From a virus (lineage: Duplodnaviria; Heunggongvirae; Uroviricota; Caudoviricetes): a stretch of 37,692 nt of DNA. The stretch is taken from IMG/VR virus record IMGVR_UViG_2645727775_000019, positions 1 to 37,692 of that record; one strand, 5' to 3'. Of this stretch, positions 4,963 through 35,990 are shown one piece after another; position 1 is the first letter of the stretch; each line of letters begins with the position of its first letter. The notes under the pieces were generated by a model. The model worked only from the letters and a program-made list of their open reading frames with translations. It had not been told where the DNA came from and ran no database searches. A program made the translations under genes and the position numbers.

Positions 4963-6011
4963 GAAATCGTCCCCAGAACCGCCAGTTCATTTTTTGCAAT
5001 GGAGATATTGTCCGCCGGTGCAAGCAACTGATGGCTGTATTCCCCGTTCGCACCGGAAATCGCTTCACTGATACGTGACACCTTCAGTTCTCCCTGCGGA
5101 TAACCATCACGCAGCAGGAACGAACGCAACTCGGCGGTGATGGCAGCCCGTATTTCCGGTGTGTCCGGCGTCACGCGGATATGAAAATCCACTTTATGCG
5201 CCACCGGCCTGAACACATACAAATCAGAGCCTGCCACCGGGGCCAGTGGCCAGATATGTTGTCTTGCCGCCGTTTCCGTTGATTCTTCCGGAATGGGATT
5301 AATCAGGTCACTGCTGGCAATCATCACACCGACAGTTCCCGTTCCCATCCAGTGACGGTATGTCCATGCGCGGGTAATGCCGGGCACTTCTTTAGCCCAG
5401 ACGACATAGTCCCCGTCAGCCCCGCCCTGCGGCGTCCAGTAATACCGCTCAATGACGCGGGCGCGCCACGTTTCCAGATCTTCAGTATCGAATCCGCCAG
5501 TCAGGGTATCTGCAACACCGGAAGACGGCAGACCATTCACCGGCGTGACCAGGATTAATGCCGTACCGTCGTCAGCGTTACCGACCGCGCCTGTAGTTGA
5601 GCAAGTGATCGGCACACGCAGGACACCACCGGAGCTGGTTGCATCGGCAGTTGCCGTGTACTGAACCAGGTCATCGCGCTGAATCACGCTCCCGGCAGTC
5701 ACCTTCAGGCCATCGCTGACACCTTCCCAGCGCATATACCCGCTGGCAGCCGTGGCCCCCTTGCGCGGACACCGTTTCATCGCAGCATGTCGCGCCAGCC
5801 AGGACTCATCGCACAGGTCAGGCAGCATATTCATTGCCAGATAATCGATGTACCCGTAAACCGTATGCAGCGCCGCCGCATACACCTTTGCCCGCACGTC
5901 TTCATCCATGCGCCGGAGCGTGTCGCTGACGTCCAGCCTGGCGAATAAATCGTTACGGAGCATACTGATATTTTCTGCCAGCGTCGGGCGCTGAAATTCA
6001 CTGTCCGCCAT
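4953..6011 (-). CDS. Baseplate J-like protein (Mu gp47-like)
   Basis: 352 aa; synteny with gp45/gp46-like genes; baseplate J family resemblance. Confidence 0.8.
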
Positions 6012-6426
6012 GCGTTATCGCACTCCACAGATCATCAAAAGAAATCATTACCGGTCCGTCACGACGCCAGAGAGTGATACTGTTACCCAGCTCATTAATC
6101 CCGGTGCGGCGGATATCCAGATCAATACGGGACACCACGCCGTCATCAATCATCCATTGCAGGCATTCGCGGATATACCCCCTTACCGTCTGCACCAGCT
6201 GATTGGTCAGTTTGCTGCGCTGAAGCAGCCACAGTCGGGAGCCGTAACGGTCATTCTGTACCGCAGGCCAGGTATCCCCCCACCATCCCATCGGGACGTC
6301 GGCGTTGTCATCAGGCTCCGCCCGCCGCCAGGTGAACAGGGAAATCACCACGGCGCGGGTCAGCGGATCCAGCGGTGCGCTGGCGCAGGTGCGTTTACCG
6401 TTCACCGTCAGCCACAGTTCCATCAT
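5998..6426 (-). CDS. Mu gp46-like baseplate protein
   Basis: 142 aa; between baseplate V-like and J-like genes. Confidence 0.7.
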   Translation of the reverse strand: MMELWLTVNGKRTCASAPLDPLTRAVVISLFTWRRAEPDDNADVPMGWWGDTWPAVQNDRYGSRLWLLQRSKLTNQLVQTVRGYIRECLQWMIDDGVVSRIDLDIRRTGINELGNSITLWRRDGPVMISFDDLWSAITHGGQ

Positions 6427-6971
6427 GCCTCCATCGCTTTATCAGGTTTGTCGGTGTTACTGCCCTGACCGTTCTCTCTGTGACGATGCCCGTTATAGGC
6501 AAGCCGCATCGCTGACATGGTGGTGCCGCCGGAGTCGCACAGGTCTTTCACCTGTCCTGTCACTTCCAGGTCCATTTCAAAACGTGCTTTAGGTGAATTG
6601 CGAAACGTGATCGTTTTACCTGCACCGTCCACCACGATCCCCTCCCGGGTCAGCGTCACGGACTGCCCCTGATCGTCATAGACAGCCACCTCACCCGTCT
6701 GCAGCCCTTTCAGGCGGTAGCGCCGGTCCGACACCGTAACAACCACCGCATGAGAACGGTCGCCATCCGGAAACAACACCACCGCTTCCGCACCGCTGTT
6801 TGCCCTTGCGGTAAAACCGTAGGGTTCAAGATGTTCAACCCCGGCTTTGGGTTCACCGGCAATCAGAGACACATCCACGGTCTGACATTTCGTGGCGGCA
6901 CTGATGCTTTTCACCACTGCCCGCCCAATCAGGCCGAGGAGTTGTCGCTGCATGGCTTCAATCGTCCTCAT
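6423..6971 (-). CDS. Baseplate assembly protein V / spike (Mu gp45-like)
   Basis: 182 aa; 4-nt overlap with downstream gene; family resemblance. Confidence 0.75.
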   Translation of the reverse strand: MRTIEAMQRQLLGLIGRAVVKSISAATKCQTVDVSLIAGEPKAGVEHLEPYGFTARANSGAEAVVLFPDGDRSHAVVVTVSDRRYRLKGLQTGEVAVYDDQGQSVTLTREGIVVDGAGKTITFRNSPKARFEMDLEVTGQVKDLCDSGGTTMSAMRLAYNGHRHRENGQGSNTDKPDKAMEA

Positions 6972-27652: not shown

Positions 27653-27975
27653 ACTTTCAGGCCCCTCTCATGTAACCAGTGGGCTGCACGCAGCCTGCCG
27701 TTTTCCTCACCGGCAAGCAGTGCGCGGATAATCCCGACCGCCTCGCTGTCGTCGTCCTTCACCGCGGTATGAAGCGTTATCCCCCGGGCCACGCCACGCT
27801 TTATCGTGATGACGCCTTTTTTCTCCAGTGCACGAAGATGCTCTACCGCTGCATTCACTGAACGGTATCCCAGCATGGTTGCCACCTCCTGATTGGTTGG
27901 CGGAAAGCCACGCTCTTTCTGGTAAGAAATCAGCATATCCAGCACCTGCTGCTGGCATTGAGTTAACGTCGTCAT
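27649..27975 (-). CDS. LexA-type N-terminal DNA-binding domain protein without peptidase domain
   Basis: 108 aa; QQQVLDMLISYQKERGFPPTNQEVATMLGYRSVNAAVEHLRALEKKGVI resembles the LexA winged-helix domain; no S24 domain follows. Confidence 0.55.
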   Translation of the reverse strand: MTTLTQCQQQVLDMLISYQKERGFPPTNQEVATMLGYRSVNAAVEHLRALEKKGVITIKRGVARGITLHTAVKDDDSEAVGIIRALLAGEENGRLRAAHWLHERGLKV

Positions 27976-28625
27976 GCCGCCATCTCCCTGACCAGTTTTT
28001 CCGCCTGCTGGCGAACCTGCACCAGAAAGGCCTCACCACATGCCTCAAGTTCATCGCGCCCGATGTAGCTGATTGTCGGTCCCTTCCAGGTCTTGTCGAA
28101 AACAGCAATAGCACCAGCGAAGAACGCTCCTGTCGGCACCTGCTTCTCGTCCTTCGGGATAAACCAGGCAGGCAGTTCAAAACCAATACGCCCGCGAATA
28201 AAAGCAATATGGTCCGCATCTTCCGGCCACCACACTTCGCTGGTGGCAGCTTTGATCAGGAAAACATAGCGCCCGCCCTTATCACGCATGGCACTGGCAT
28301 GTTTCATGATGTAACGCATGCCGGTGATGTATTGCCCCTCATGCTGACTGGCGCGGCTGTATGGAGGATTTCCAAAGGCAGCACCTTTAAGCTCCGCAAG
28401 ACGTTCTGACCAGTCATGCGCCAGCGCGTTGTCTTCCGCCGTGTAATACGCGGCGCATTTGGCGTTATCACCGTCAGTAAACAGATCCAGAACAAACGGG
28501 CCAAACAGGGTGTTAATTCCCCAGAAAATGTTGTCCGGTGTGCGCCACTGATCGCCCACTTCCTTCAGTTCATGGGCTGGTTTGTTTCGCAACTCCACCA
28601 GCGCCTGGCAATATTTATTACTCAT
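27972..28625 (-). CDS. Phage N6-adenine DNA methyltransferase (Dam-type)
   Basis: NPPY catalytic motif (FGNPPYSRA); ATG start at MSNKYCQ overlaps upstream stop as TAATG. Confidence 0.75.
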   Translation of the reverse strand: MSNKYCQALVELRNKPAHELKEVGDQWRTPDNIFWGINTLFGPFVLDLFTDGDNAKCAAYYTAEDNALAHDWSERLAELKGAAFGNPPYSRASQHEGQYITGMRYIMKHASAMRDKGGRYVFLIKAATSEVWWPEDADHIAFIRGRIGFELPAWFIPKDEKQVPTGAFFAGAIAVFDKTWKGPTISYIGRDELEACGEAFLVQVRQQAEKLVREMAA

Positions 28626-29113
28626 TAAGCCCCCACGTAATTCCCTGACAGATACCACTCATCACCCGATACAGCGCGCTTGCTGCTTTTCCGTAAGCAC
28701 CGCTCACGATGCGCCAGAAAATTGTTTCGTTCTGGCTGGGAGTGGCTTTCACGGAATGCCGCCATCCACACCGTTGCAGCACGACGGTATAAGCCCCTTG
28801 ACTCCAGTTCTTCAGCCTGGCGGGTCAGGCACAAAATCACCCGGGGATCGTTAGTGCCGACATAGAAATTGCGCACAGGTCTGGTTTCACGAACTGGTTG
28901 TGGTTCCGACTCCTGCGCTCTCTCAGTCAGGCGCGGGAAATGTCTGCGTGTATCTCCTTCACAACGGTGAGCCACACGCCCACTCTGACGTAACTTGCTT
29001 GCTGACTGCAGAACGCGCTGCCGTGAGTAACCTGCAAAAGCATCCGCAATGTCTCCGGAAGTACACCCCGGATGGGCTTCAATGAATTTCTGAACTTCAT
29101 TCAAAAGACTCAT
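28625..29113 (-). CDS. Hypothetical regulator with C-terminal ANR/PerC-like motif
   Basis: Start at ATG (MSLLNEVQKF) with GGGGGTG site; C-terminal RGLYRRAATVWMAAF resembles ANR-family small regulators. Confidence 0.45.
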   Translation of the reverse strand: MSLLNEVQKFIEAHPGCTSGDIADAFAGYSRQRVLQSASKLRQSGRVAHRCEGDTRRHFPRLTERAQESEPQPVRETRPVRNFYVGTNDPRVILCLTRQAEELESRGLYRRAATVWMAAFRESHSQPERNNFLAHRERCLRKSSKRAVSGDEWYLSGNYVGA

Positions 29114-29115
29114 AA

Positions 29116-30057
29116 TCACCCCCTGAATCCTGCCGGGATCTGGCTGTAGTCCACATTGTCGTAACTGGCTTTGAAGTACGGGTCTTCACGTTTTTCTGTG
29201 TGCGTGCTGACGGACGGCGATAAGCGCAGGGAAAGCTCATCCCATTTTTCCCGCAACTTCGACGGGCTGAGCACGTTACGGCACCAGAACGGATCGCGGC
29301 TGACGCGGCTGTACATCTCGCAGATTTGTTTGTGAGTACGACCATCCTGCACACACATCAGGCGAATTTCGTTTGCCCAGGCTGTCCAGTTAGGTTCTTT
29401 GGGACGAACCACCTCGCCGTCACATTCGGCGGCCTGCTCGTACAGGGCGATGATTTTTTTCCAGAGCCACTGTGCGCAGGTCAAATCATCCTGCGTTCCC
29501 CACTGGCGCTTTTTAGGGCTGAATACAACCGCATCAGGATGGCGAGTTAAAAAATCCTGTTCATCCATCTGCGTGTCCGGTTGCGAAGCGTCCGGACGAG
29601 AAGGTTTTTTATCTGATGGATCATGTTTTGATTTTACTGACGGATCCCCGCCAGATTCTGACGGGTGAAAACCCGCTTTTTTGCCAGATTTCGACGCATC
29701 AAATTTTGACGGGTCAGATTTTGATGCGTCAGATTTTGACGGGTCAGAATCTGACAGTTGAGAAAATGCCGCTGCCTGAAGCTTCGCAACGTTAAGCTGA
29801 TAAACATTCGACGCATTGCGGTTACCCTGGCGACGCGCCTTACGCGTTAACCAGCCTTCTGCTTCCAGCCGTGCGATAGCCGTTCTGACGGTACTCATCC
29901 CCGCGCCAATCTGGCGGGCAATGGTTTCAATTGATGGCCAGCACACACCTTCGTCATTACTGAAATCAGCCAGGCGGGCCATAATTGCCACGCTGGATAA
30001 TTTCATGCCTGACGCTGCGCAACCATCCCATACATAGCCGGTTAATTTAGTGCTCAT
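29116..30057 (-). CDS. Replication initiator (lambda O-like, HTH N-terminal domain), origin embedded in gene
   Basis: 313 aa; N-terminal HTH replication-protein domain; central linker encoded by tandem DNA repeats (iterons). Confidence 0.7.
   Translation of the reverse strand: MSTKLTGYVWDGCAASGMKLSSVAIMARLADFSNDEGVCWPSIETIARQIGAGMSTVRTAIARLEAEGWLTRKARRQGNRNASNVYQLNVAKLQAAAFSQLSDSDPSKSDASKSDPSKFDASKSGKKAGFHPSESGGDPSVKSKHDPSDKKPSRPDASQPDTQMDEQDFLTRHPDAVVFSPKKRQWGTQDDLTCAQWLWKKIIALYEQAAECDGEVVRPKEPNWTAWANEIRLMCVQDGRTHKQICEMYSRVSRDPFWCRNVLSPSKLREKWDELSLRLSPSVSTHTEKREDPYFKASYDNVDYSQIPAGFRG
29653..29760. repeat. Iteron array (putative ori) inside the O-like gene
   Basis: Three perfect and at least two degenerate ~15-bp tandem units ATTTTGAC(G/A)(G/C)GTCAG, each with internal TGAC/GTCA symmetry; AT-rich stretch adjacent at ~29600-29645. 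Confidence 0.6.
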
Positions 30058-30226
30058 GACCGACCTCTATTTCCCTGAATTTACGACGAAACTGTTCGAG
30101 CGGACTGAAGCATTCATGCTCATAGCCTTCGCGGAGGTAGATAACCCGTTGTGTTTCCGGTTCCCAACGAATGACTCTGACGGGCACTCCGTAGTGATCT
30201 TTGAACCAGCGGTTAACTTGTCGCAA
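30047..30226 (-). CDS. Candidate DUF4222-like small protein (59 aa) in alternative frame, TTG start
   Basis: AGGAG 8 nt upstream of TTG; translation [59 protein letters not shown]; overlaps ORF 30067..30405. Confidence 0.4.
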
Positions 30227-30405
30227 AGGACTGTCTCCTTCTGCCGGTTGAAATCACCCACAGCCCACTCTGCAAAGCTGTGGGTTACAATTTCCCTGTC
30301 ACCTGGTACATTCACTGCATAGCAATATTCCACCTTCGCTTTTCCACCCGGAACAGGAAGCGCAATCAGTTGCGAGCGACGGTAGTGTGTTGTTAAACTG
30401 TTCAT
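30067..30405 (-). CDS. Hypothetical protein (ORF A); 3' portion probably not genuine coding
   Basis: ATG directly after the CII-like stop; first ~55 aa look protein-like, the remainder overlaps the alternative-frame small gene. Confidence 0.35.
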
Positions 30406-30971
30406 GCGTTAGTTTCTCCACAACCAGAAGCAATCGACGCCACGACGCCCGGAGCTGCACACTCGCGGGCGTCATTACTTTCTGAAATGCAAAAAATTTT
30501 GTAGACAAGTGCTGCATGCTCCTGCAGCTTCGAAATTGAGAGATACAGCTCGTCGTTAATTGCTGTCTTCTCATGCGGTTCCACCACACCGTCTTCGATT
30601 GCTGAACGAATCTGTTTTGAATAACTGCCGATCTGTTCAATGACTTCCAGCAGACGCTGGTTAATATCGGCGTTGTCCACATCCTCGACGTCAGGAAGAG
30701 ACACAAAGACGCCATTTGCAGACTGCGCCACAGCATCAGCAATGAAGTGAGTGCCACCAGCACGCTGTAAAACCATTGCCCATCCCAGCGGGAAAATCTG
30801 ATCGCCATCTGCACGAAGGCGGTTGAATAAAGCGTTTTCTGTTACATCGAGCCAGTCAGCCGCTTCAGCGTAACCACCCGGCAACGCCGCGATAGTTTTT
30901 CTGACAGCTTTCACGTACCACTCAGGCTGTTTTTCTATTTTCCAGTGATGCTTACCCACGATTAGCCTCAT
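30402..30971 (-). CDS. CII-like phage regulatory protein
   Basis: 189 aa immediately downstream of cro; resemblance to phage CII/CP76-type regulators. Confidence 0.55.
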
Positions 30972-31293: not shown

Positions 31294-31968
31294 ATGAAAA
31301 CAATCCATGACATCCGGCGGTCTAACGCCAGAAAACTGAGAGATGGTGTTGGCGGGAATTCTTCCTTTGCCACTATGATTGATCGCGAGCCAACCCAGAC
31401 CAGCAGGTTTATGGGAGATGGTGCTACTAAAAATATCGGTGACAGCATGGCACGACACATCGAAAAATGTTTCGACCTACCTGTCGGATGGCTCGATCAA
31501 GAACACCAGACAACGAACATCACAAAAAAACCTGATGTTTCAATCACTAATAAACAAATCACATTAGTCCCTGTCATATCATGGGTACAGGCCGGAGCAT
31601 GGAAAGAAGTTGGATATTCTGAGGTTGATTTGAGCACAGCAGAAACGTATCCCTGCCCTGTACCCTGTGGGGAAATGACTTATATCTTGCGGGTGATAGG
31701 TGATTCAATGATTGATGAGTACCGCCCGGGAGACATGATTTTTGTCGATCCTGAAGTACCTGCCTGCCACGGTGACGACGTTATTGCATTGATGCACGAT
31801 ACAGGTGAAACCACCTTCAAAAGGTTAATAGAAGATGGGACACAGCGTTATCTCAAAGCGTTAAACCCAAACTGGCCTGAGCCTTACATTAAGATCAACG
31901 GTAATTGCTCTATAATTGGTACAGTGATTTTCTCAGGAAAACCAAGAAGATACAAAATCAAAGCCTAA
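31294..31968 (+). CDS. cI: CI-like repressor (HTH plus S24 autopeptidase domain)
   Basis: 224 aa; C-terminal GDSM Ser and FKRL Lys dyad intact. Confidence 0.85.
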   Translation: MKTIHDIRRSNARKLRDGVGGNSSFATMIDREPTQTSRFMGDGATKNIGDSMARHIEKCFDLPVGWLDQEHQTTNITKKPDVSITNKQITLVPVISWVQAGAWKEVGYSEVDLSTAETYPCPVPCGEMTYILRVIGDSMIDEYRPGDMIFVDPEVPACHGDDVIALMHDTGETTFKRLIEDGTQRYLKALNPNWPEPYIKINGNCSIIGTVIFSGKPRRYKIKA

Positions 31969-35917: not shown

Positions 35918-35990
35918 AATAGCGGGTAAAATATTTTTCACATCTAAAAAACACCATTCCAATCAATCCCCTGCCGCCTCAAGTAGATGT

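Follow-up and report, generated by a model that had tools for sequence, protein, structure and literature searches.

The 37,692-bp stretch analysed here (IMG/VR record IMGVR_UViG_2645727775_000019, hereafter the window) is a lambdoid prophage of the SfIV/SfII type. Its O-like replication initiator gene contains an array of short palindromic repeats, and this array is most probably the replication origin of the phage, of the lambda type, located within the linker-coding sequence of the initiator's own gene. An iteron-type origin at this site had been proposed in a preliminary description made from the sequence alone, and the comparisons below support it, with initiator binding and origin firing as predicted consequences. 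At the sequence level, every feature predicted for an embedded iteron origin was found at this candidate locus.

The initiator gene (minus strand, 29116..30057; 942 bp, 313 aa), taken from the open reading frame list, encodes a winged helix at the N terminus, a linker predicted to be disordered and, at the C terminus, a domain homologous to that of lambda O. In an AlphaFold model built on 30 homologs, the winged helix spans residues 1-98 and a helical domain spans residues 189-278 (predicted local distance difference test score, pLDDT, ~80-88), while pLDDT falls below 50 at residues 102-185. The repeats correspond to codons 101-136 and the AT-rich element that follows them to codons 138-152; both therefore lie inside the sequence coding for the disordered linker, as had been described for the repeats.

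Repeat array in the initiator gene

Six copies of a 13-bp palindrome, with the coding-strand core GTCAGAATCTGAC, are found at gene nucleotides (nt) 303-408. Five are arranged head-to-tail with 15-bp spacing (29683-29755), and the sixth is detached at 29650-29662, past a 20-bp spacer. In minus-strand reading, iteron 1 (GTCAGATTCTGAC, 29743..29755) is a perfect 13-bp palindrome, and it is followed by iteron 2 (GTCAAAATCTGAC, 29728..29740), iteron 3 (ATCAAAATCTGAC, 29713..29725), iteron 4 (GTCAAAATTTGAT, 29698..29710) and a degenerate iteron 5 (GTCGAAATCTGGC, 29683..29695). Iteron 6 (GTCAGAATCTGGC, 29650..29662) forms the core of a 19-bp near-palindrome (CCCGTCAGAATCTGGCGGG) and directly abuts the AT-rich element.

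The tandem units of ~15 bp originally reported, ATTTTGACGGGTCAG and ATTTTGATGCGTCAG on the plus strand at ~29704-29748, are indeed present, and a repeat search recovered six in-register copies starting at 29649, 29682, 29697, 29712, 29727 and 29742. Tandem Repeats Finder, which had been suggested as a check, identified the array at 29685-29748 with a period of 15 (4.3 copies, 81% matches) and offered a period of 30 (88% matches) as an alternative call. The reported internal dyad symmetry is accounted for by the 13-bp palindromes, each unit containing a dyad such as GTCAGATTTTGAC / GTCAGAATCTGAC. When at most one mismatch was allowed, the motif GTCARAWYYTGAC occurred at five sites in the window, all of them within 29650-29755, compared with 0.71 expected; none of 100 shuffles gave a count as high. 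Iteron 5, with two mismatches, represents a sixth and weaker site, and no motif clusters were detected elsewhere in the 37.7-kb window.

The 15-bp spacing places adjacent sites ~150 degrees apart around the helix, and the stronger 30-bp super-period hints that every second site occupies the same helix face. The functional site may be GTCA-N5-TGAC or the overlapping TGAC-N2-GTCA.

Between iterons 5 and 6, the spacer (29663..29682) consists of an A6 run and a small hairpin, CGGGT-TTTC-ACCCG, and is conserved in group-1 relatives (the specificity groups are described below). On the plus strand, antisense to the initiator gene, a weak terminator-like hairpin (CGGGTGAAAACCCG, then CTTTTTTGCC) was noted at 29662-29684; it may be a mere reflection of the overlapping palindromes.

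Array length is identical in 80 of 82 close relatives, the other two having one extra unit. Among distant proteins with the same type of N-domain, the number of units ranges from ~9 (Klebsiella P0046) down to 2, and close homologs differ in steps of 5 aa. The two-palindrome case is a 288-aa Salmonella variant, P0033 (L171, gene 6001-6867), in which both palindromes precede the GATC element. Its prophage, located at icd (>100 contigs), appears intact and retains int, xis, cI, cro, cII, Dam, RusA, Q and holin genes.

Tandem palindromes also affect the predicted structure of the transcript. Sense RNA from 29596-29765 folds at -53 kcal/mol, compared with -31 +/- 3.5 kcal/mol for shuffles (z = -6.3), and a terminator-like hairpin is present on the antisense strand at 29662-29675. 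These observations would fit a constraint on the transcript or on single-stranded DNA, for example hairpins that pause translation between domains or control mRNA stability, or a single-strand initiation signal. We consider such a constraint highly improbable, since a high fold score is the automatic outcome of tandem palindromes and the long-range predicted pairs do not survive changes in unit number between 2 and 9. Conservation is instead seen in each local 13-bp dyad and in how it matches the N-domain type, a pattern that marks the sites of a dimeric DNA-binding protein.

AT-rich GATC element

A lambda-type origin is expected to have an easily melted, AT-rich region directly after its repeats. 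In the window, the AT-rich element GATCCGTCAGTAAAATCAAAACATGATCCATCAGATAAAAAACC (minus strand, 29604..29647) follows iteron 6 and contains two GATC sites (29619-29622 and 29643-29646). The AT-rich stretch described after the repeats is real: AT makes up 77% of the 30-mer at 29607-29636, no other 30-mer within 28.6-30.6 kb is less stable, and it falls within the least stable 1.3% of the whole window. It is nevertheless short, and the GC content of 60-bp windows falls only to 0.40.

An alignment of 23 relatives from four specificity groups revealed a common layout, in which a group-specific palindrome of ~19 bp is followed by the nearly invariant sequence GATCCRTCAGT...GATCCRTCAG with two to three GATC sites. 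Each group has its own palindrome exactly at the position of iteron 6. The near-invariance of the GATC-bearing DNA element explains why the residues it encodes, DPSV..DPS, are invariant in an otherwise variable linker. We take this element to be the presumed DNA-unwinding element. In the window overall, GATC shows no enrichment (145 observed vs 150 expected), and what is notable about the two sites is only their conservation across relatives. No DnaA boxes were found near the array, the sole match in the window being at 35934.

Two further observations concern this region. In all phage relatives inspected, a Dam-type methylase gene is located zero to one genes downstream of the initiator gene. 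In addition, initiators with other N-domains and 22-23-bp iterons (L024-L031, L035, L041, L047, L058 and L164, the last from mEp460) carry three to four tandem 12-mers, ACAGAGAATACA, encoding the peptide TENTTEITTENKT, at gene nt ~440-570, just downstream of their iterons and at the position of the GATC element. This tract may be a family-specific unwinding element.

Selection on the linker-coding sequence

With a period of 15 bp, a multiple of three, the array can also be read in frame as an SD(P/A)SK repeat, and the translation of the minus-strand gene includes ...SDSDPSKSDASKSDPSKFDASKS..., in agreement with the repetitive peptide first described. The DNA repeats could in principle be secondary to this peptide. 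Under such an explanation, a low-complexity SDxSK linker expands and contracts by slippage, and the regularity of the DNA reflects recent duplication and codon bias. The in-frame period, the predicted disorder of the linker and the 5-aa steps by which close homologs differ are all in keeping with it, and a peptide repeat under protein selection had been named at the outset as the finding that would speak against an origin.

Silent sites were compared among 14 homologs with one type of N-domain, some bacterial (E. coli, Klebsiella, Pantoea, Providencia, Citrobacter and Yersinia) and others from the phages phiNP, YeP3 and phiP27, with codon identity scored where the amino acids are identical. 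The N-domain, which flanks the linker in each gene, provides a fair internal control. Codon identity in the linker, at 0.84 (2285/2734), was twice that in the N-domain, at 0.41 (2532/6225), and it reached 0.93 over the GDPSVKSKHD segment encoded by the AT-rich element. When the set was pruned to 8 divergent genes, the linker exceeded the N-domain in 28/28 pairs (0.64-0.95 vs 0.30-0.48; Wilcoxon p=7e-9, a value that overstates independence because the homologs are interrelated). In the same 8 genes, amino-acid identity is lower in the linker (0.33-0.77) than in the N-domain (0.57-0.87). Linker silent sites are therefore twice as conserved as those of the flanking folded domain, although its amino acids are less so. 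Codon choice in the linker is strongly skewed, with TCA or TCT at 82% of Ser codons and with 87 AAA vs 2 AAG codons for Lys.

Arrays at the equivalent place were then compared across the superfamily defined by the C-domain, using 81 genes (80 from one genome per species, plus the window gene). A mid-gene tandem array was present in 70/81, and in 21 of these the period is 11, 22 or 23 bp, so that these 21 arrays cannot encode peptide repeats. The same procedure recovered the four iterons of lambda (gene nt 349-435) and the 21-bp repeats of phi80 (nt 367-439). Relative to the shared C-domain, the window array at nt 303-408 occupies a position equivalent to both.

Specificity groups and mosaic genes

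If the initiator recognizes the repeats, changes in its DNA-binding domain are expected to be accompanied by changes in the repeat unit. Four groups of N-domain were distinguished by recognition helix and wing. In the first, STVRTA / GNRNAS pairs with the unit cGTCAGAATCTGACg; in the second, STVKSA or TTVSAA / GGRN(V/L)S pairs with GGTCAAATATTGACC; in the third, STVIT / GQRS pairs with GTYCAGAWTCTGRAC; and a fourth, divergent N-domain from Serratia pairs with GGTGARGGCTCAC. The 15-bp period is common to all four groups, and the encoded peptides are unrelated (SDPSK, IDPSN, PETER and GEGSH). Moreover, some group-2 relatives use one 15-bp unit in both orientations, TTGACCCC giving IDPS/IDPP and TTGAGGGG giving VEGS/VEGL; this is seen at gene nt ~345-490 in L014 and L023 (both Edwardsiella) and in L168 (E. 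coli).

Mosaic genes indicate which parts of the locus travel together. The mEp460 and E. coli P0038 genes are 96-100% identical to the window gene from gene nt ~480 onwards, and have other N-domains and other repeats. Conversely, phiNP and YeP3 have the N-domain, the iterons and the GATC element in common with the window and then continue into a C-domain that is unrelated; in phiNP, conservation is highest in the iteron blocks (90-95% vs 71-81%). In phiP27, L17 combines the same N-domain/iteron/GATC module with a third C-domain, and is followed by DnaC-like and DnaB-like genes. Identity in 60-nt blocks places the approximate mosaic junction, between the block of N-domain, iterons and AT-rich element and the alternative C-terminal modules, at 29578..29608. 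Across it, identity rises from ~48% to 98-100% for mEp460 and P0038, and drops from 83-95% to ~45% for phiNP. From these comparisons, the unit of inheritance is the N-domain plus the repeats plus the AT-rich element, joined to three unrelated C-domains. The N-domain of lambda O and the lambda origin are likewise inherited as one specificity module.

Four tests, namely silent-site identity, the arrays of the wider family, the matching of repeats to N-domains and recombination in blocks, thus favour a DNA-level function, and argue for purifying selection on the linker at the DNA level over a peptide repeat. The protein-level explanation is contradicted by the silent sites, by the 11-, 22- or 23-bp periods of sister families at the equivalent place and by the use of one unit in both orientations. 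In addition, the peptides are wholly different between groups (SDPSK, IDPSN/VEGLT, PETER/SDSER) while the 15-bp dyad architecture is kept, and dyad symmetry is meaningless at the peptide level. There is accordingly very little chance that the array is a slippage-driven peptide repeat.

Initiator protein and gene neighbourhood

The initiator gene is 98.8% identical to the gene for SfIV gp41, a protein that databases name 'replication protein', 'primosomal protein' or 'O protein family', and PHROG 391 ('replication initiation O-like') matches the whole protein (E=1e-135). The similarity to lambda O is unevenly distributed. BLASTP aligned the two proteins with 31% identity over 216 aa (E=8e-26), and the match is significant only via the C-terminal part. 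With tblastn, residues 166-277 share 39% identity with lambda O and 35% with the product of phi80 gene 15. The sequence coding for this C-terminal helical domain (aa 166-278; minus strand, 29224..29562) thus has its counterpart in the homologous C-terminal halves of lambda O and phi80 gp15; a structure search found no solved relatives of the domain.

For the N-domain, a Pfam search of the initiator gave no match to the family of the lambda O N-domain (Phage_rep_O, which we take to be the Pfam name for the lambda O N-terminal origin-binding family), and instead gave HTH_36, GntR and MarR-like winged-helix families. The HTH_36 winged helix covers residues 23-70 (E=4e-11). In the AlphaFold model, the N-domain, which is encoded at 29764..30057 on the minus strand and is presumed to bind the origin, has helices at residues 3-16, 20-31, 43-50 and 54-66 and a beta hairpin at 70-88 (pLDDT 61-85). 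Its best fold matches in the PDB are MarR-type winged-helix DNA binders, with weak E values of ~1e-2, and a sequence search of solved structures likewise returned only weak MarR-type matches. Judged by sequence, the initiator is a hybrid, with a C-domain that belongs with lambda O and an N-domain that stands apart.

On the upstream side of the initiator gene are a small gene with no assigned function (30067-30405), a CII/CP76-like gene (30402-30971) and a cI-like repressor gene (31294-31968, plus strand). Downstream, the order is PerC-like (28625-29119, directly adjacent), Dam (27972-28658), LexA-like and RusA. The GTG start codon of the PerC-like gene shares 4 nt with the stop codon of the initiator gene (29116-29119), and this overlap suggests translational coupling. 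Downstream of the initiator gene, a helicase-loader gene of the P or DnaC-like kind is absent from the window and likewise from SfIV, mEp460, phiNP, Klebsiella phage 1 LV-2017 and YeP3.

A circular 'plasmid' of 15,977 bp, NZ_CP148542.1 (L173), contains nothing but a lambdoid prophage segment, cI-cro-(frameshifted group-2 O-like gene)-DnaC-like ... Q-lysis. The record represents either a circle of the lambda-dv kind or an artefact of assembly. Given the latter possibility, this candidate natural mini-replicon was not used as evidence. The Rac prophage origin oriJ was considered as a possible experimentally active relative; the K-12 protein YdaU carries the annotation DUF1376, and this candidate likewise plays no part in the argument.

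Proposed origin mechanism

In the proposed mechanism, dimers of the initiator's N-terminal winged helix would bind each palindrome and assemble into a multi-protein complex like the lambda O-some. Strain from this complex would then open the adjoining 30-40 bp AT-rich element (29604-29647), and the lambda-O-like C-domain would recruit the replicative helicase of the host. In lambda, P is bound by the C-terminal half of O. Since no P- or DnaC-like gene lies beside the window initiator, helicase recruitment would presumably be direct or via host DnaC. The SD(P/A)SK repeat would be a by-product tolerated in the disordered linker.

The same palindromes could instead bind the initiator or another phage protein for autoregulation, titration or copy control, with the true origin elsewhere. 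Plasmid iterons also serve in autorepression and handcuffing, which lends some weight to a regulatory role, and a regulatory array could more easily tolerate copy numbers that vary from 2 to ~9 among relatives sharing one N-domain. Such a role would not explain why the array lies exactly where the lambda and phi80 iterons sit relative to the homologous C-domain, or why a conserved, easily melted element always follows it. Furthermore, the 37.7-kb window has no second motif cluster, and no sigma-70-like promoter that the sites might control was found in 29000-30500. We therefore judge a purely regulatory array to be improbable, and retain a lambda-type origin as the preferred explanation.

Several points weigh against that explanation. 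First, we infer all three of its central events, initiator binding, unwinding and origin firing, from sequence. Second, no helicase-loader gene lies beside the initiator to carry out the step after unwinding. Third, the AT-rich element is short and only moderately AT-rich. Fourth, the existence of two-palindrome relatives means either that two sites are enough or that those prophages are non-replicating. Fifth, because the palindromes fold the transcript stably, an RNA-level constraint is conceivable from sequence, and the interrelatedness of the homologs tempers the pairwise silent-site statistic, as mentioned above. Finally, published origin mapping for SfIV/SfII-type phages was not found in a literature search: the SfIV genome paper mentions a replication module and no origin, a paper on Shiga toxin (Stx) phage 'Eru' replication regions does not discuss iterons, and nothing usable was found on initiator-solo origins, on HTH_36 proteins with iterons or on phi80 gene 15.

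The absence of a loader gene, the conserved GATC sites and the dual coding can be combined into a more far-reaching model. In this model, the winged-helix/lambda-O-C hybrid acts as a solo initiator that fires without a phage loader, via an unwinding element that is common to different iteron specificities and dual-coded, both as DNA and as the DPSV..DPS peptide, and its GATC sites would subject firing to the Dam methylase gene nearly always found zero to one genes downstream, by hemimethylation or SeqA-type timing, as at oriC. As a whole, this model is speculative and rather unlikely to be correct in all its parts. Even so, the solo initiator, the GATC element near a recurrent Dam gene and the dual coding are more deserving of follow-up than the origin call itself.

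Significance

Initiators of this type are very common in prophages of E. coli, Shigella, Salmonella and Klebsiella, with a single 90%-identity cluster containing >5,000 member sequences. They are found in Shigella phages that convert serotype and, joined to a different C-domain, in phiP27, an Stx2e phage. Database labels for them are limited to 'helix-turn-helix protein', 'primosomal protein' or 'O protein', with no annotated origin. The iteron specificity groups could help to predict whether co-resident prophages are incompatible in replication or cross-activate each other, and the linker provides a clean example of sequence constrained both as a DNA site and as a protein linker. As an origin assignment, the gain is incremental, because textbooks have described iteron origins within the O gene since lambda; the lambda-type arrangement is well known, and is seen here in a less studied initiator family.

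Comparison with known systems

The organization of the window locus is most readily compared with that of the lambda origin and O gene, a comparison already drawn in the preliminary description. It holds for position and for the C-domain: in both phages the origin (a candidate one in the window) lies in the initiator gene between a DNA-binding N-domain and the C-domain, palindromic repeats are followed by an AT-rich stretch, the arrays are in equivalent positions relative to the homologous C-domains (lambda nt 349-435, window nt 303-408), and N-domain and origin form one specificity module. It does not extend to the N-domain, which in the window is of the HTH_36 winged-helix type and shows no detectable similarity to the N-terminal half of lambda O, or to the partner gene, since no P gene follows the window initiator. 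The units also differ, being 13-bp palindromes at 15-bp in-frame spacing in the window and 18-19-bp sites at 20-24 bp in lambda, and the AT-rich part is shorter in the window and carries conserved GATC sites.

Phi80 gene 15 (X13065) resembles the window gene in its C-domain (35% identical) and in having a tandem array, at gene nt 367-439. It differs in its period of 21 bp, its repeat sequence (CCGAAAACGGGAAAAnCCTTC), its N-domain and the presence of gene 14, the P analogue, directly downstream. The phi80-type 21-bp unit recurs in several loci of the C-domain superfamily.

The Stx phages 933W and 'P27' have six-iteron origins, and iteron number in the O gene varies naturally (4 vs 6), lengthening the protein; iteron binding has been shown by electrophoretic mobility shift assay and footprinting (Kozlowska et al. 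2020, PMC7466680). This natural variation parallels the 2-9 units seen among relatives of the window gene. However, the 933W and 'P27' initiators are true lambda-O proteins with lambda-type iterons, and 'P27' is not phiP27 (NC_003356). The 'P27' O protein of PMC7466680 was considered as an experimental relative and was rejected, as it is a lambda-O protein that differs from that of lambda by 2 residues and is not phiP27 L17.

Iteron plasmids offer a further parallel, through the initiators RepA of pPS10 and pSC101, RepE of F, pi of R6K and TrfA of RK2. In plasmids, the iterons are 17-22 bp long, are located outside the rep gene and usually have DnaA boxes with them, whereas the window array lies inside the gene, consists of palindromic units and has no DnaA box nearby. 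In common with the window, these systems have winged-helix initiators and repeat arrays beside an AT-rich unwinding element (a presumed one in the window), and they recruit the helicase without a dedicated plasmid loader, much as the window initiator may do without a phage-encoded one.

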